A stretch of DNA of 12,937 bases from Candidatus Hodarchaeum mangrovi (GCA_016839515.1 JAEOUE010000269.1:1-12937), one strand, 5' to 3'; numbered from the stretch's first letter, positions 5,109 to 11,844 are shown. The notes: generated by a model from the letters alone, not told the origin. Numbers and translations: made by a program.

Positions 5109-5753
5109 TTAGATTTTAGTTTGTTTGAATCTTGAGAATAAAGCTAAAACTTTTTCTTTTTCACTGTAAACAACGATTAGCTCTAAAAAAATAATTAGTG
5201 AAAAATATAGAAAATTGTAGGTGTTGAAAAACAAAACTGGTGGGATAAATAGAAAAAGAATACTATTAGTTAAAAAATTATCATAGGTTTTATTTTTCGT
5301 AATAAACTTCTTTACCAGTTGCATTACAGTCATTAATCCTATATAAAGAAGAAAAAAACTTTGCCACGATATAAAAAAAAGTATTCCTCCTAAGGGGGCT
5401 CCTCCTTTCCCACCGTGCCATTTATGCTGTTCAATCCATATCCAGAATGAGTTTATATGACCAAGGAGAATACCAACACTAGCTATTGCAATATGTCCTT
5501 CAATATTCTGTAATTGGATAATAATTCTAAAAACATAATCAATTAATCCTAGGGCAAAAATTGCCTTCCCAATGTCAAATAATCCTACAATTATTAAAGC
5601 AGGCCATCCTAATAATCTTCCAGCGTTTGTTGCCCCTAATTGTCCTGTTCCCTCTTCTGTTAGATTAATCCCACGAATTTTTGCCCAATAATAGGAAATA
5701 AAAACTGAGCCGCAGAAATATCCTAAAAGACCACTAAGGAATACCTCAAAAAT
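5109..5753 (-). CDS. plsY: PlsY-like glycerol-3-phosphate acyltransferase (acyl-phosphate dependent), ~214 aa, start codon non-canonical or unresolved
   Basis: Manual translation shows the frame of the tracked 74-aa ORF is open from 5768 to 5109: IFEVFLSGLLGYFCGSVFISYYWAKIRGINLTEEGTGQLGATNAGRLLGWPALIIVGLFDIGKA...GILLGHINSFW...WHGGKGGAPLGG... It contains the PlsY signatures GYxxGS, GxGxxGATNxxR, DxxK, GH and GGKG, plus multiple TM helices. The first ATG/GTG/TTG is at 5333; ATT 5753 is used as a nominal start. Confidence 0.85.
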   Translation of the reverse strand: MFEVFLSGLLGYFCGSVFISYYWAKIRGINLTEEGTGQLGATNAGRLLGWPALIIVGLFDIGKAIFALGLIDYVFRIIIQLQNIEGHIAIASVGILLGHINSFWIWIEQHKWHGGKGGAPLGGILFFISWQSFFLLYIGLMTVMQLVKKFITKNKTYDNFLTNSILFLFIPPVLFFNTYNFLYFSLIIFLELIVVYSEKEKVLALFSRFKQTKI

Positions 5754-6633
5754 TAATTTTTCTTCCCCCTATATCCTTATTTGGCAAAGCGAAATAAGCA
5801 ATTAATAATAAACCAGGGCCAGTATTTGCTGCAATCATTGGATCAGCATCGCCTTCAATAATTTGATATTGAGGAAAATATTTATTTATTTCTTGCTTCA
5901 TTAGTTTTGAATCTTCCTTGCATAAGAAATCACTGATACCAACAATATTCGGTTTTATATTTGTATCTATACTTTTAGATAACAAATTCACCATTATATC
6001 TAACGCTTTTTCTCTTTTTCGGGGCCTGTCAACTAAAAATATATCTGAATTTCTCATAATTAGAATTGGCTTGATTGAAAGTGCATCAGCCATCATAGTT
6101 GCTATTTTTATACTTATTCGACCTGTCTTATTAACATATTTTAACGAATCTAATGTCCCTATAACTTGAATCTGCTGACAATACTTTTGAACCTGTGATA
6201 ATAATTCTGATTCATCACCAATTTGTTGTGCAGAAATGGCCGTCGCAATTACTACCAACCCTAAACCTAATGTTGCTACACCAGTCTCAAATAATTTGAT
6301 TCGAGACGGGTCTTTCATTCTTTGAATAGCTGTGTTTGCTGAATTGATTGCACTAGTTTGTTTCCTAGGAGGATGTAAACTGATAATGAAATCAACATCA
6401 TCAATTAAACTACTATAAGCATTATAATATTCTCCTGGTGGGGGAGCACCAGTTCTGAAAGTCTTATTTTTCTCTGTTATGATTTTACTTAAATCTTTAG
6501 TAAAAAAATTCTCGCCACTTTTATAGCGTTCCCCATCTATGTATATATCTCCTGGAACAACAATAATTGAATATTTTTTTTTCAATTCTATTGGTAATTC
6601 GCCCATTGAATCAGTAACAATACCCACTTTCAA
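5746..6633 (-). CDS. degV: DegV-family (FakB-like) lipid/fatty-acid-binding protein
   Basis: MKVGIVTDS, LKYVNKTGRI, IKPIL and C-terminal TGPG; 295 aa. The TTG start overlaps the upstream stop (TTGA, 6633-6630), with SD GGGAGG 8 nt upstream. Confidence 0.9.
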   Translation of the reverse strand: MKVGIVTDSMGELPIELKKKYSIIVVPGDIYIDGERYKSGENFFTKDLSKIITEKNKTFRTGAPPPGEYYNAYSSLIDDVDFIISLHPPRKQTSAINSANTAIQRMKDPSRIKLFETGVATLGLGLVVIATAISAQQIGDESELLSQVQKYCQQIQVIGTLDSLKYVNKTGRISIKIATMMADALSIKPILIMRNSDIFLVDRPRKREKALDIMVNLLSKSIDTNIKPNIVGISDFLCKEDSKLMKQEINKYFPQYQIIEGDADPMIAANTGPGLLLIAYFALPNKDIGGRKINF

Positions 6634-7664
6634 TTGGATATCCTCCCTATTCGCTGATTCTTTTGTTTAAGAAATTCCATATTCTGTTGCTCTAAAGAAT
6701 GGAAAGTAATAATTTTTACTAAGTTTGTAAGCGAATTCAACTTTGCTATTACTTCTGTGGGATTATTACAATGAATATGAATTTTAACTTTTGAGTCATT
6801 TTCTGCTTTTGTAATGATTAAAGTATCACCTAAATCATCTAATTGGTTACTTAGCAAGCTTAATGACCAATCTAATCCTGGTATTAATGCAATTATCTCA
6901 TATTTCTTCTCAAATTCTTTGAAATCTATTTCAGGTTTAATAAAGTAATTCAATTCATCAGATATAGGGATAATCTCTAATCCAACTTGATATATTTCTC
7001 TTATCTTTATTAAAAACCCCTCAAGAATAACAACTAGCCCCATTGCACCGGAATCAACTACCCCAGCCTTTTTGGCTTCTTTAAGAACATAGTGAGTATC
7101 TTTTAGAGCAATTTTGGCATCTTCAAAAATAATATGTAATAATTCATAGGGATTGGTTACTAATTTCTTCCAAACTTCCGCTGATTCCCCAATCGAACGT
7201 GCCACAGATAATATTGTTCCTTCTCTTGGTCTGATTACAGCATTATAAGCAAATTCTGCCGCTAATTTTAATCCTTCTACTAAAACTTCGATATCAAGAC
7301 TTTTTTGATTCTTCCAAGCTACTTCTAATCCTCTAAAATACTCAGATAAAATACTTCCTGAACTTCCAGCACACCCTCTGAATGCTCCTTGGGATACTAG
7401 TGACATAATATTCCCACAATGGTTATCATGGGGAACTTTTGATAGTTCGTTAATAATTGACTTAAACGTTTGTACTAAATTAGTACCTGTATCGCCATCA
7501 GGGACAGGAAAAACATTGATAGAATTCAACAAATCGTTATATTTTTTAAGGCATTCAAAAGAACTAAATAGCATTAAATAGAGATCTAATCCCGAAATAA
7601 GCTCTGGGTAGGTTTTATCATCTTCAAGAGCGAATTTATAAAAATTCATACTTGAAACACCCAT
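6630..7664 (-). CDS. fakA: DAK2-domain protein, fatty acid kinase subunit A (FakA)-like, lacking the C-terminal domain
   Basis: LNSINVFPVPDGDTGTNL, PREGTILSV, GVVDSGAMG and KIHIHxxxP are FakA/YloV-family motifs. It is 344 aa versus ~550 aa for canonical FakA, and is translationally coupled to degV. Confidence 0.85.
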   Translation of the reverse strand: MGVSSMNFYKFALEDDKTYPELISGLDLYLMLFSSFECLKKYNDLLNSINVFPVPDGDTGTNLVQTFKSIINELSKVPHDNHCGNIMSLVSQGAFRGCAGSSGSILSEYFRGLEVAWKNQKSLDIEVLVEGLKLAAEFAYNAVIRPREGTILSVARSIGESAEVWKKLVTNPYELLHIIFEDAKIALKDTHYVLKEAKKAGVVDSGAMGLVVILEGFLIKIREIYQVGLEIIPISDELNYFIKPEIDFKEFEKKYEIIALIPGLDWSLSLLSNQLDDLGDTLIITKAENDSKVKIHIHCNNPTEVIAKLNSLTNLVKIITFHSLEQQNMEFLKQKNQRIGRISN

Positions 7665-7681
7665 AGATTCTTCATTAATTA

Positions 7682-7689
7682 TTTATAAA
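7682..7689 (-). promoter_or_regulatory. Candidate TATA box (TTTATAAA) for the fakA-degV-plsY operon
   Basis: Lies 17 nt upstream of the first ATG of fakA. The surrounding DNA is very AT-rich, so specificity is low. Confidence 0.3.
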
Positions 7690-7826
7690 TTCACTTTAAA
7701 TAGAATCTAAATTTAAACCTTAAATATTTATCTTAAAAGAAACTATTAGCTGAAATAAAAATCTTAATTACAATGAAAGAGCTAAATTGAATAATTCATT
7801 AATAAAATATGCTGAAATTTAAAAGT

Positions 7827-8606
7827 TTAGCTCAACTTTCTTTCTACATCATTGCAGAAAGAAAGAAGTAGCTTATTAAATGCTTCAGATTCCGATTTAT
7901 GAAAACTATGGTCCCCTTCAAAAGGAATTATTTTTGTTTTAGGGGGTAAATGTTGTTTTAGTAAATCATAATTTTTTGAAGGATTTATGCTGTCCCTTAA
8001 TCCATAAGTTAATAAAATGGGAATATTTAATTTTTGAAAATTTTTAAGAAATTTAATAATCCTTTCATTATTTAATATTAAATTTACCGATGAAAAAGCT
8101 TTAATTATTCTTTTGAATACAATCCAAGCTGCCTTTCCAAACGAACTGTTCTTTTTTACTATCCTTTTAGATTTCGGGAGCTTTGGGATTGATGGAATAA
8201 ATGAATTTAGAACGCTTAATGGACTAACAAGAATTATTCCAAGAACATCTTGTGGAAACATTGAGGCATATGTTAGTGCAATTGCTCCCCCAATGGAATA
8301 ACCAACAAAAATAAAAGGTTTCTTTAACTTCATATGGCTTTTTAGTAAAAACCTGAGATTTTTAAGATCGTAGATAGGACTTTTTTTCTTCTGAATATCT
8401 TTTACAGTTTTTGTTGTGAAACTAAAAATATTTGGAGCTATTACATGATATTTTGATGTAATATTTGAATTATTTAATTGCTGTTCCCAATGTTGATGAG
8501 AATTGCCTGAAAATCCATGTAGTAACACTAATGGTCGACCTTCACCATTTTGATGAAGTGAACTTGAAAAATCATCTCTGCCAGATTGAATCAAATTTAA
8601 AGACAA
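7827..8606 (-). CDS. Alpha/beta-fold hydrolase (esterase/lipase-like)
   Basis: Oxyanion motif LVLLHGF, nucleophile elbow GYSIGG (GxSxG), catalytic Asp in YGLRDSI and His in EGDHSF. The exact TTG start is uncertain. Confidence 0.88.
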   Translation of the reverse strand: MSLNLIQSGRDDFSSSLHQNGEGRPLVLLHGFSGNSHQHWEQQLNNSNITSKYHVIAPNIFSFTTKTVKDIQKKKSPIYDLKNLRFLLKSHMKLKKPFIFVGYSIGGAIALTYASMFPQDVLGIILVSPLSVLNSFIPSIPKLPKSKRIVKKNSSFGKAAWIVFKRIIKAFSSVNLILNNERIIKFLKNFQKLNIPILLTYGLRDSINPSKNYDLLKQHLPPKTKIIPFEGDHSFHKSESEAFNKLLLSFCNDVERKLS

Positions 8607-9125: not shown

Positions 9126-9845
9126 ATGAATGGACAATTTAGACAAAACATATCAGAACTCAAAAATTATTTGGATTCAGGTCAACTTGATAGAAAAAAG
9201 CATTTGATAAAATTCCAAAGTTCTTTAAGAGTCGCAAGAAAGAGTAATCAGGATGATGAAGACTTAAGAATTTTAGGCAAGATAGATTCTTTCTTTTTTG
9301 AGAAATGGCGTGTACCAAAAACTAAACAAATAATTGGGATTCCTGTACTTATTATAGCTGTTTTATTGGCTCAAATATTATATTTTAGTCTAATAGTAAG
9401 TAAACCATTATTTTTACTTGGAATAATTTTCTATTTCGTTTTTAGTTTTGCAAACTATACCCTTTCACATGTTATTTATCACTGGATTTTTGGTATAATC
9501 CTAGGGATACAATTTAAATCAATTTTTATCTTTAAATCCTCATTTAGAAAAGCAAGATATCCTTTTAATCTGATTGGGAATTTATTACCAACTTTTGGTA
9601 TAAAATATGATACTTATTCTTTTCTTAAGGCCAAAAAATGGAAACGGACTATGATGTTTATCTCTGCGCCCCTATTAACCTGGATTTGGTTTTTTATTAA
9701 CTATATATACCTTTTAGTACAATACCCCTCTGAAATATCCTTATTATTTACAATTGGAGGTATATTAATAGTTTTTTTTGTAATTAGTCAATTTTTAAGC
9801 TATTATGGAAAAGGAGACATCTGGAAAGCTACTCTCGATTATTAA
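9126..9845 (+). CDS. Integral membrane protein with a degenerate zinc-metalloprotease-like signature (HxxxH...AP...GD)
   Basis: Soluble N-terminus followed by 4-5 hydrophobic segments; SHVIYH, FISAPLL and GKGDIW in the order seen in M50/DUF3267-like membrane zincins. The CDS itself is well supported; the family call is tentative. Confidence 0.65.
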   Translation: MNGQFRQNISELKNYLDSGQLDRKKHLIKFQSSLRVARKSNQDDEDLRILGKIDSFFFEKWRVPKTKQIIGIPVLIIAVLLAQILYFSLIVSKPLFLLGIIFYFVFSFANYTLSHVIYHWIFGIILGIQFKSIFIFKSSFRKARYPFNLIGNLLPTFGIKYDTYSFLKAKKWKRTMMFISAPLLTWIWFFINYIYLLVQYPSEISLLFTIGGILIVFFVISQFLSYYGKGDIWKATLDY

Positions 9846-9958: not shown

Positions 9959-10621
9959 ATGGTTTTAAATTTAATATATCCTATATTAGTCTTGACTGGA
10001 ATTCTTTTAGTAGTTTGGACCCTAATTTCGTATTTTACAACCAGAGCCATAGAAGAACCAAAATATATAGTGCTGAAAAAATACCCTAATTTTGAAATAC
10101 GTGAATATCTACCATATATTATTGCTTATACTGATATTTTAAGCTCTTTTAATGAATCAGCTAATTCAGGGTTTCGAATACTGGCTAATTATATTTTTGG
10201 AAGAAATAGCAGATCTCAGAAAATTAAGATGACTGCACCAGTTATTCAGGGAAAAATAGAAATTACTACAGAAAAGATTGCAATGACTAAACCAGTTATT
10301 CAAGAAGAGAGAGGAAACTCCTATCGAATAGCCTTCATCATGCCTTTAAAATATACATTAGAGACCTTACCTAAACCAGAAGACCCAAGAGTAAAGATTA
10401 CAGAAGTAGATAAGGAAATTAGAGCAGTATATACTTTTAAAGGATGGGCAACAGAGAAAAGAGTAAAAGCAAAGCAGGAAACCTTTATTGGATTACTTGA
10501 GGAAAGTTGTCTCCCCTTTAAAAATATTAAATTAGCTCAATATGATCCTCCATATACTCCCCCCTATATGCGGAAAAATGAATTACATGCTACTCTAGAT
10601 ACCGACTATACCTCATATTAA
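9959..10621 (+). CDS. SOUL-family heme-binding protein with N-terminal membrane anchor or signal
   Basis: IEEPKY, FEIREY, GFRILANYIFGRN, KIxMTAPV, FIMP, LPKP and YDPPYTPPYMRKNE are SOUL motifs. Residues ~3-25 are hydrophobic. Confidence 0.92.
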   Translation: MVLNLIYPILVLTGILLVVWTLISYFTTRAIEEPKYIVLKKYPNFEIREYLPYIIAYTDILSSFNESANSGFRILANYIFGRNSRSQKIKMTAPVIQGKIEITTEKIAMTKPVIQEERGNSYRIAFIMPLKYTLETLPKPEDPRVKITEVDKEIRAVYTFKGWATEKRVKAKQETFIGLLEESCLPFKNIKLAQYDPPYTPPYMRKNELHATLDTDYTSY

Positions 10622-10722: not shown

Positions 10723-11844
10723 TCAAATTTCTGTAAAACTCTTTACAGTATTTAAATCAAGTCTTTTAATTACCTCAATAAGTAGTGAAACTGCTTTTTC
10801 CACATCTCCAAGATCTAAAATACCATTATGGCTGTGGATATGCCTTGTAGGTATTCCAAGAACAAGTGAAGGACAACCAGATCCTGATAAATGTATTCTT
10901 CCTGCATCGGTTCCACCACCCATTACTACACTATCTTGATATTCTATATTAAATTCTTTAGCAATATCAATGACATAATGACGTAATCGAGGATTAGGAA
11001 TCATTGAAGCGTCTCCAGCTAAAATTGAGACACCCTTGGACATCTCTGAAGGAGCTTTTAACTTCGGGACATCAGGAACATCACCAGATATATCAACTTC
11101 AAGAGCAAAACCAATTTCTGGTTGAATCATTTGAGCTGAAGTTTGAGCCCCTCGAAGGCCTATTTCTTCTTGCACAGTTGCTACTCCGAACAATTGGTTG
11201 GGATGGGCAATATTTTCTTCTTTAATTTTTCTTAACACTTCTGCAGCAATAAATAGTCCAATACGATCATCAAATGCTTTACCAATAAGAAGACTCACTT
11301 CTTTCCTATTCTCTTTTTCATCCTTTTTTTCAATCTGGGTTCTTTTAATCATCTCAAATTTAGAATCAGGAACAATTGGATCTCCTATTTGAATCCCAAG
11401 CTCCTTCACTTCTTTATCACTTTTACATCCTACATCAATAAACATTTTGTCTTTAGTAAGAACTTTTTTTTGTTCTTCAGGATCTAATACATGAGGAGGT
11501 GGGGCTACAATAATTCCACGATGTAAATCTCCCGTTTTAGTCTTTATGATAACTCTTTGGGTTAAAAGAGACTGATCCCACCATCCGCCTACCTGATGAA
11601 AGCTGATATATCCTTTCTGATTAATACCAACAACAATAAAGCCGATTTCATCGACATGGCCAGCAAGCATGATTTTAGGACCCTTATCACCAACTTTGAA
11701 GATTAAAGAACCCGTTTTGTCATTAAGTACTTCATCAGAAAAAGTTGAGACATATTCCTTTACGATTCTGGTTACTTCCAGTTCATGTCCTGAAGGACCA
11801 AACGCATTACTCATTCTTTCTAAAAACTCAAGATTCAGATTCAT
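10723..11844 (-). CDS. M42-family metallo-aminopeptidase (TET/glutamyl aminopeptidase-like)
   Basis: GPSGHE, AGHVDEIG, KAFDDR, QEEIGLRGA, GGTDAG and RHIHS provide the dinuclear metal ligands. SD GAGGAG 5 nt upstream of the ATG. Confidence 0.95.
   Translation of the reverse strand: MNLNLEFLERMSNAFGPSGHELEVTRIVKEYVSTFSDEVLNDKTGSLIFKVGDKGPKIMLAGHVDEIGFIVVGINQKGYISFHQVGGWWDQSLLTQRVIIKTKTGDLHRGIIVAPPPHVLDPEEQKKVLTKDKMFIDVGCKSDKEVKELGIQIGDPIVPDSKFEMIKRTQIEKKDEKENRKEVSLLIGKAFDDRIGLFIAAEVLRKIKEENIAHPNQLFGVATVQEEIGLRGAQTSAQMIQPEIGFALEVDISGDVPDVPKLKAPSEMSKGVSILAGDASMIPNPRLRHYVIDIAKEFNIEYQDSVVMGGGTDAGRIHLSGSGCPSLVLGIPTRHIHSHNGILDLGDVEKAVSLLIEVIKRLDLNTVKSFTEI

Follow-up and report, generated by a model that had tools for sequence, protein, structure and literature searches.

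It has long been asked whether any archaeon makes ester lipids from fatty acids. The issue is linked to the 'lipid divide' and the origin of the bacterial-type membranes of eukaryotes, and Asgard genes for the acyltransferase PlsY have been cited both for and against such lipids. What could supply an archaeal PlsY with acyl groups? We approached this through a 12,937-nucleotide stretch of DNA from Candidatus Hodarchaeum mangrovi (GCA_016839515.1 JAEOUE010000269.1:1-12937), referred to below as the window. Three overlapping minus-strand genes encode a short FakA-like kinase, a DegV (FakB-like) protein and a PlsY-like protein. Based on their sequences, we consider it probable, with moderate confidence, that they form a working, translationally coupled operon in an Asgard archaeon, for a compact fatty-acid kinase and an acyltransferase that uses its product. 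The operon comprises the following features.

6630-7664, minus strand: short fakA-like gene, 344 amino acids; Dak2 kinase domain and FakA middle domain, no FakA_C
6630-6646, minus strand: junction 1; GGAGG (6646-6642), 8 nucleotides, and the degV start TTG, which overlaps the fakA TGA stop
5746-6633, minus strand: degV/fakB-like gene, 295 amino acids from a TTG start; Pfam DegV, TIGR00762
5746-5769, minus strand: junction 2; purine-rich GGGGGAAG (5769-5762), 8 nucleotides, ATT (5753-5751), TTT and the degV stop TGA (5748-5746)
5109-5753, minus strand: plsY-like gene, 214 amino acids from the ATT at 5753-5751; stop-to-stop frame 5109-5768

The kinase open reading frame (ORF; 6630-7664) matches Pfam Dak2 (E-value 1.3e-31) and FakA-like_M (1.8e-8), and the second ATG, at 7649, agrees with the N-terminus of the nearest relative (MNFYKF). 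Its match to TIGR03599 is restricted to profile positions 4-303 of 530, and the PDB FakA structure 7w7h aligns to residues 37-330 (E-value 1.6e-37; 7rm7 was also matched). Motifs of the Mg/ATP site (NVFPVPDGDTGTN and VVDSG) are conserved, and the protein retains the equivalents of Asn32, Asp38, Asp40, Thr41, Asp185, His282 and His284 (Staphylococcus aureus numbering, from PMC9136124). The second protein scores above the DegV domain cut-offs (PF02645, 143 bits with a cut-off of 27, E-value 1.5e-41; TIGR00762, 176.6 bits with a cut-off of 99.7), is the only DegV match in the whole genome and matches 22 DegV/FakB chains in the PDB at E <= 0.001. Among the carboxylate-binding residues of FakB2 (Thr61, Ser93, His264 and Arg170; Streptococcus suis numbering, from PMC10848957), the equivalents of Thr61 and Arg170 are retained.

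The frame at 5109-5768, which the preliminary description of this locus had likened to PlsY, scores 79.5 bits against Pfam G3P_acyltransf (PF02660; gathering score 24.1), and is the sole PF02660 match of the 4.0-Mb genome. Its AlphaFold (AF2) model (mean predicted local distance difference test, pLDDT, 90.6) has the PlsY fold: the top five Foldseek matches are all Aquifex PlsY (5xj5-5xj8; template modelling (TM) scores 0.75/0.82), the next match has an E-value of 1.9, and the family profile matches 5xj5 with an E-value of 9.2e-15. A search with the single PlsY sequence returned just one distant Eubacteriales locus. Of the 21 other genomes in the genus, nine have an orthologue at 47-62% identity when searched with the window PlsY. 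Given these orthologues, the PlsY fold and the sole PF02660 match, the frame is not a chance ORF, and NCBI labels its relatives 'glycerol-3-phosphate acyltransferase'. With residue roles and Aquifex numbering taken from PMC5700162, the donor side is retained (Thr41, Arg45, His92 and Gly-Gly-Lys104-Gly, the acyl-phosphate 'phosphate hole'). At the acyl-phosphate site, Thr41, His92 and the GGKG loop are also invariant in the family of the window PlsY, except for a Ser in place of Thr41 in many members, and the window PlsY keeps 22 of the 22 invariant family positions.

The three genes are joined by short overlaps. The degV start and the fakA stop share the TTGA at 6633-6630. Downstream, the degV stop (5748-5746) falls within the plsY frame, where the ATT is the sixth codon, and ATT, TTT and this stop together read ATTTTTGA. 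The preliminary description was right that plsY has no standard start, as the first ATG, GTG or TTG of the frame is codon 146. Its expectation that pipelines would miss the gene did not hold: a protein collection entry (P0001) of 214 residues, identical to the window, begins at the ATT. In 8 of 10 related loci the ATT column is ATG, giving proteins that start MFE or MIE; the nearest relative (genome G010, 62% identity) shares the ATT, and the purine-rich motif is kept upstream of the start in relatives, as it is before the ATT in the window. Translation of plsY would probably begin at this ATT, overlapping the degV stop, via termination-reinitiation behind a purine-rich ribosome-binding motif.

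Gene order and inheritance also link the three genes. In the same genus, degV lies directly before plsY in 10/10 loci (nine genomes, of which G014 has two loci), and fakA precedes degV in all nine loci that extend that far. DegV and the Hodarchaeales-type PlsY are confined to the identical 9 of 21 genus genomes, and Dak2 occurs in eight of those nine (the ninth is truncated within fakA by a contig end) and in 0 of the 12 others. The operon flanks are not conserved in the genus except for an alpha/beta hydrolase in the nearest relative. From this and the shared presence and absence we conclude that the three genes behave as one accessory unit. A sister family within the order is represented by two genomes, and both encode PlsY, Dak2 and FakA_M fused in a single ORF (PlsY::Dak2::FakA_M, 585 and 598 amino acids) followed by an overlapping degV, and three further PlsY::FakA fusion clusters were found in the database. 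The operon and fusion versions are mutual nearest relatives in the PlsY and DegV trees (support of 99 and 92, respectively, in the Shimodaira-Hasegawa-like approximate likelihood ratio test, SH-aLRT); the FakA tree leaves this grouping unresolved. The profiles and overlapping junctions thus bear out the earlier proposal of one coupled operon of Dak2 kinase, DegV and PlsY-family genes, and its co-conservation is evident in the joint gain and loss in 9 of 21 genus genomes, in the fusions and in an operon of another Heimdallarchaeial family described below.

The window is a complete contig (C239, 12,937 bases) of the 4.0-Mb assembly G000 (348 contigs; completeness 91.3%, estimated contamination 6.09%). 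No rRNA or universal marker gene lies on it, and a search of the genome with archaeal and bacterial Rfam models of small-subunit rRNA gave 0 matches, so taxonomy was taken from protein evidence instead. The composition of the contig is typical of the bin, with a GC z-score of -1.57 and a tetranucleotide distance that falls at the 75th percentile for 85 bin contigs of comparable length. For the PlsY-like and FakA-like proteins, the closest homologues that carry a name belong to NCBI Hodarchaeota, Heimdallarchaeota, Promethearchaeota and other Asgard metagenome-assembled genomes, and some sit on contigs of 87-410 kb. Genes for a Ras-family GTPase and a DRG-like GTPase adjoin the operon in relatives, and short fakA genes of other Heimdallarchaeia neighbour EMG1, aIF5B, L7Ae, TiaS, prefoldin and Ras genes. 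The host is thus a Hodarchaeales-type member of the Heimdallarchaeia, an Asgard archaeon, in agreement with the Asgard-like origin supposed at the outset.

We anticipate the following route through the operon. DegV would hold a free fatty acid, and the short FakA, a natural 'FakA_NL' composed of kinase and middle domains, would phosphorylate it with ATP to an acyl-phosphate. The seven-helix PlsY-family protein would then move the acyl group to a phosphorylated glycerol, either glycerol-3-phosphate (G3P) or glycerol-1-phosphate (G1P), yielding an ester lipid of the lysophosphatidic-acid type. We infer each of these catalytic steps, as well as the fatty-acid ligand and the acceptor, from the gene identities and conserved residues. 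PlsX has no match above cut-off in the host genome or in any of the 83 genomes of its class, which would leave Fak as the sole supplier of acyl-phosphate. The idea of an 'activate and transfer' unit is strengthened by this and by the PlsY::FakA fusions.

In S. aureus and S. suis, FakB docks on the C-domain of FakA (PMC9136124, PMC10848957). All aligned Asgard FakAs end about 20 residues past a conserved EQ, whereas bacterial FakA continues into this domain, and FakA in all Heimdallarchaeia examined is without it. S. aureus FakA_NL is reported to retain catalysis, although its apparent Km for FakB1 is 11-fold higher (0.99 vs 0.09 uM; PMC9136124); by this precedent, a C-less FakA can work. Across the class, PF13684 (FakA_C) gave only weak matches (<=35.5 bits), mostly in ORFs of about 280-330 amino acids and a few shorter fragments. 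We read these as cross-matches, several of which coincide with DegV genes, and do not take them for a free-standing FakA_C. Another unusual FakA architecture is found in P0150 (857 amino acids).

A number of observations weigh against the proposed route. PF13684 has no match anywhere in the host genome, and FakA scores below the NCBIfam equivalog cut-offs (NF038248, 155.9 bits with a cut-off of 975; TIGR03599, 221.3 with a cut-off of 396.1). Ser stands at the equivalent of Asn82 in the window protein and in the two relatives closest to it, and Cys240 has no aligned counterpart, while the HxH motif is invariant. All nine short Hodarchaeales-type FakAs have HxHC, and two aligned PlsY::FakA fusions have a Cys240-like Cys and no HxHC; this covariation suggests that the Cys directly after HxH may substitute for Cys240. 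In DegV, Ser93 is replaced by Thr and the carboxylate-binding His264 by Asn in the window and four relatives; other operon DegVs retain the His264 equivalent. PlsY falls below the NCBIfam equivalog cut-off (TIGR00023, 62.1 vs 137.2 bits), and its ATT is a weak start. The module is accessory, since 12 of the 21 genus genomes, including a closed one of 4.9 Mb, are without all three genes. Lastly, a cultured Asgard archaeon yielded archaeal lipids only, as cited in PMC13400652.

The most pronounced departure is on the acceptor side of PlsY, which carries S35T, N37Q, H177E and N180K. The residues of the G3P pocket are not conserved as a set: Arg45 and Lys104 are retained, and Ser35 is Thr, His177 Glu and Asn180 Lys (Ser142 of Aquifex PlsY falls in a gap of both alignments). 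Aquifex variants at three of these positions are reported to keep little activity (S35T 17%, N37Q 9.5%, H177A 6.5%), and in the solved PlsY the His177/Asn180 motif positions G3P (PMC5700162). With this motif missing, G3P is not assured as the acceptor. The changes extend across the Hodarchaeales-type clade, where position 37 is Q, K or N, His177 is replaced by Glu or Asp, and Asn180 by Lys, Ser or Thr. A YDNFxTN insert with two invariant Asn is specific to this clade, whose branch in the tree is very long, at 2.47 changes per column. Searching 1.84 billion representatives with the family profile gave only seven clusters at E <= 1e-30. Thr35 occurs in all seven, and residue 177 is acidic in all six that reach the motif-3 columns (the seventh is a 133-residue fragment), whereas the next 143 matches mostly have Ser35 (126) and His177 (105 of the 111 aligned there). 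The rebuilt pocket offers a concrete lead in the search for a new substrate specificity. The term 'bacterial-type' used earlier for the module is too simple, given the missing FakA_C and PlsY His177/Asn180.

These features raise other readings of what the enzymes act on. The kinase half could function as proposed while PlsY no longer acylates free glycerol phosphate and takes another acceptor, perhaps an ether-lipid intermediate such as geranylgeranylglyceryl phosphate (GGGP), a different phospho-alcohol or else a polar head group, so that the product would not be a bacterial-type lysophosphatidate. The clade-wide change of acceptor-side residues beside a retained donor side, the Asn-bearing insert, the Thr35 of all seven top clusters with the acidic residue 177 of six, and the long branch all speak for this. 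However, the phosphate-clamp residues Arg45 and Lys104 are kept, Lys180 could itself still bind phosphate, and the unconserved flanks indicate no candidate acceptor. Canonical bacterial PlsY is moreover reported to take both G1P and G3P already (PMC13400652), and thus use of G1P would need no rebuilding of the pocket. We regard a different acceptor as a serious but rather unlikely alternative. A departure at the kinase step is improbable in our judgement: here the Dak2/DegV pair would act on a non-ordinary ligand, for instance an isoprenoid acid or another lipid carboxylate, and the operon would not serve straight-chain acyl uptake. Of three carboxylate-binding positions, DegV does deviate from FakB at two (Thr for Ser93 and Asn for His264), the numerous DegV paralogues of Heimdallarchaeia suggest varied ligands, and Dak2 also occurs in dihydroxyacetone kinases, with a true DhaK/DhaL/phosphotransferase system (PTS) cluster in locus L090. 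Yet the DhaL of that cluster matches the FakA profile weakly (E-value 1.3e-11 vs <=1e-65 for the others), only Fak-type kinases have a FakA middle domain with HxH, Thr61 and Arg170 do not vary, and linkage or fusion to PlsY fits a carboxylate that ends as an acyl ester.

Others concern how plsY is expressed and where the contig comes from. ATT is a poor initiator codon, no ATG, GTG or TTG precedes codon 146, and the module is dispensable within the genus; plsY could accordingly be an incipient pseudogene, silenced by a change of ATG to ATT, with the kinase pair alone still made. There is little likelihood of this, given that G010 has the same ATT at 62% identity with both frames open over their full length, that all 22 family-invariant positions and the upstream purine-rich motif are intact, and that acyl-phosphate would lack a known use with neither PlsY nor PlsX. 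The same G to T change would create a shifty stop (A-UUU-UUG-A, read UUU UGA), at which tRNA-Phe could slip by +1 and so link DegV and PlsY in one polypeptide. ATTTTTGA permits UUU to re-pair one base downstream right before the stop, comparable to the UUU re-pairing ahead of the stop at the prfB site, the run is found in precisely the two genomes without ATG, and fusions among FakA, DegV and PlsY are known in other genomes studied here. But separate proteins are made from ATG in 8 of 10 relatives, and because the fusions place the cytoplasmic kinase at the C-terminus of a seven-helix PlsY (topology in PMC5700162), its N-terminus should face outward and would be ill-suited to a cytoplasmic DegV. 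A slip appears less likely still than a silenced gene. Lowest of all we rank the reading of the contig as a bacterial contaminant irrelevant to archaea, which is very unlikely. The contamination of the bin and its 348 contigs, the window being a whole 12.9-kb contig with neither rRNA nor universal marker, and the chiefly bacterial distribution of the Dak2, DegV and PlsY families would allow it. Against this, GC and tetranucleotide composition are ordinary for the bin, the closest homologues of all three proteins have Asgard names, several on 87-410 kb contigs, Ras-family and DRG-like GTPase genes neighbour the operon in relatives and EMG1, aIF5B, L7Ae, TiaS and prefoldin genes do so in other Heimdallarchaeia, and the operon is present in ten independent assemblies of one genus.

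A fatty-acid kinase coupled to an acyltransferase, the reading we prefer, would use a phosphorylated glycerol, and genes that may supply one are present in the genome. Two G1P-dehydrogenase-like genes (contigs C90 and C311; L036, L037) score 290 and 317 bits on NF002022, with an equivalog cut-off of 413, and there is one gene of the GGGP synthase (GGGPS) family. A glycerol kinase is above cut-off (724 bits) on the 3.9-kb contig C125 (L100), and a GlpD-like dehydrogenase gene lies on C16 (L108). GpsA was not recognised among the eight PF01210 matches of the genome; the six tested with NCBIfam were 3-hydroxyacyl-CoA dehydrogenases, ProC, or unknowns that match GpsA in the first 100 Rossmann residues only (<=34 bits). 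Given the G1P-dehydrogenase-like, glycerol kinase and GlpD-like genes, G1P and G3P may both be available. Three full-length PlsC-like acyltransferases and a fourth, interrupted match are encoded as well, along with beta-oxidation genes. Bacterial PlsY and PlsC are reported to accept both glycerol-phosphate stereo-forms in vitro (PMC13400652). A bolder version, which we hold only tentatively and consider unlikely, is that in Hodarchaeales-type archaea a dedicated, rebuilt PlsY esterifies scavenged fatty acids, activated by the C-less Fak, onto G1P or an ether-lipid intermediate. If true, an archaeon would have natural mixed ester/ether or heterochiral membrane lipids.

The components of the module are widespread in the class of the host. 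DegV is found in 74 of 400 Asgard genomes, of which 71 belong to the 82 class genomes other than G000 (72 of 83 when it is included; by family 9/21, 2/2, 31/31, 12/12, 12/12, 1/1 and 3/3); the 317 Asgard genomes outside the class gave three weak matches. Dak2 occurs in 66 of the 83 class genomes, in ORFs that are all <=374 amino acids except for two PlsY fusions. PF02660 is more broadly distributed (158 of 400 Asgard genomes, including 77 of 135 in f20, a family of another class). The operon, the fusions and this class-wide spread point to a source of acyl-phosphate in Heimdallarchaeia for the puzzling archaeal PlsY genes.

DegV is expanded in two Heimdallarchaeial families, with 10-29 first-look candidates per genome, of which six were scored in each; the copies are often in tandem and score 230-270 bits (e.g., G074:C163 6972-8760, G032:C155, G056:C143, G082:C96 and G036:C159). 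Genomes of family f3 (L095-L099) encode two Dak2-only proteins each, of 209-233 amino acids and without the FakA middle domain. These genes lie away from those for DegV and PlsY, for example beside leucyl-tRNA synthetase, and all f3 genomes have DegV and PlsY. In family f20, the PlsY domain forms the N-terminal half of proteins of about 400 amino acids whose C-terminal 200 residues have no Pfam match (L189:1289-2512, minus strand; L190 684-1907, 3622-4875, 4996-6189 and 6292-7500, minus strand, four tandem copies). In the ESM Atlas these proteins resemble phosphatidate-cytidylyltransferase-like clusters (feature score 0.90, structure TM 0.85-0.88), and a PlsY-CdsA-like fusion is possible, as a lead only.

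In f4, another family of the same archaeal class, the order fakA-degV-plsY was found in 5/5 loci examined (L080-L084 / L109-L112). These operons share with the window the gene order and a short FakA (313-330 amino acids, Dak2 and FakA_M). In contrast, their PlsY is canonical, with GSGN and HRxN motifs and Pfam scores of 155-163 bits, and groups with bacterial PlsY (SH-aLRT 87), whereas the window PlsY is placed on a long branch together with the PlsYs of other Heimdallarchaeia (support 95). In one f4 locus (L083:6454-6978, G037:C69) the DegV frame is open for 175 amino acids only, covering profile positions 107-279, with fakA and plsY intact; a frameshift or an assembly error is possible there.

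Related arrangements also occur in bacteria. Among 80 named PlsY loci, four are the f4 operon, and in three of the other 76 a FakA(N+M)::DegV fusion lies directly upstream of plsY (L137, Spirochaetaceae; L138, Thermotogota; L148, Fidelibacterota); P0192 and P0251 are also such fusions. The fusion ORFs of the three loci, 603-643 amino acids long, combine Dak2 and FakA_M with a true DegV domain that scores 207-225 bits. They resemble the window in gene order and in the C-less kinase, but kinase and DegV are one polypeptide and PlsY is canonical (160-171 bits), whereas in the window fakA and degV are separate overlapping genes and PlsY is divergent. An unrooted tree of 50 kinase modules separates 22 Asgard short FakAs together with six bacterial fusions from 22 canonical three-domain FakAs (SH-aLRT 98). 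This branch and the bacterial fusions indicate a distinct C-less, cis-linked type of Fak in both domains. An earlier tree with 68 rows placed all 30 from Asgard archaea in a single group within bacterial FakAs (SH-aLRT 94). As all of these trees come from 'quick' searches with SH-aLRT support only, contain long branches and include a bacterial sample biased to best matches, we draw from them no donor lineage or direction of transfer.

Among the closest known systems is the FakA/FakB-PlsY pathway of Firmicutes (S. aureus, S. suis and Bacillus subtilis), which uses these three protein families with a like chemistry, from fatty acid through acyl-phosphate to an acylated glycerol phosphate. Shared with Firmicute-type enzymes are the ATP/Mg site of FakA_N, the HxH motif of the middle domain, two FakB residues (Thr and Arg) and, in PlsY, the acyl-phosphate site. 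In Firmicutes, fakA, fakB and plsY are dispersed, unlike the single overlapping operon of the window. The window system also differs in having no FakA_C docking domain and in the replacement of PlsY motif 3 (His177/Asn180); PlsX was not found in the host genome, so that acyl-ACP (acyl carrier protein) exchange would be absent. The host, too, is unlike Firmicutes, being an archaeon with G1P-dehydrogenase-like and GGGPS-like genes.

'Orphan' PlsY and PlsC homologues in Asgard archaea have already been published (PMC6431249, PMC6737245, PMC13400652), and reportedly by Villanueva in 2017 as well. They are of the same family and phylum as the window PlsY, but these papers report no donor-forming enzyme, whereas the window PlsY is physically coupled to a Fak-like kinase. 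Coleman et al. (2019) found no archaeal PlsX or PlsB, described archaeal PlsC and PlsY as patchy and from metagenome bins only, and doubted a role in lipid synthesis (PMC6431249). Our search of the literature, which most subscription journals and supplements lay outside, found no description of a Fak system in Asgard or other archaea. Thus, Asgard PlsY is already known, and we found no paper on a link to Fak. The bearing on eukaryogenesis suggested in the preliminary description is indirect only, as eukaryotes are reported not to use PlsY (PMC5700162) and Coleman et al. see no eukaryote-Asgard link for these genes (PMC6431249). The three-gene cassette is testable with the published assay for the bacterial enzymes, including G1P vs G3P (PMC13400652). 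Strains of the order proposed to be closest to the first eukaryotic ancestor, which we take to be Hodarchaeales, are reported to be in culture (preprint 10.1101/2025.02.26.640444), so lipid tests in an organism are within reach.

Two further features lie upstream of the operon.

7665-7826, minus strand: likely promoter region; AT-rich 162-nucleotide spacer 5' of fakA with the TATA-like run TTTATAAAT
7827-8606, minus strand: alpha/beta-hydrolase gene, upstream of the operon; Pfam Abhydrolase_1, 1.4e-17

A sigma-70 promoter scan found 16 sites, no more than in its shuffles (mean 21.1), with a model that does not cover archaeal promoters. The hydrolase is a possible fatty-acid-releasing esterase, loosely linked to the operon: a homologue at the same position occurs only in G010 (61% identity), and in L045 and L046 plsY is directly followed by other genes for alpha/beta hydrolases. 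Such genes, not always of the same family, adjoin the operon in the window and in three of the four relatives scanned (L043:5450-6226; L045:8728-9519 and 11017-11826; L046:9055-9855). Genes for a PEMT/ICMT-like methyltransferase and an acyl-CoA thioesterase lie near the operon in L044 and L045. Elsewhere in the window, on the plus strand, 9126-9845 is an ORF of 239 amino acids with no Pfam or NCBIfam match, and 9959-10621 encodes a SOUL heme-binding protein (Pfam 2.3e-43, no NCBIfam match) in a region of low GC content (0.26-0.29).

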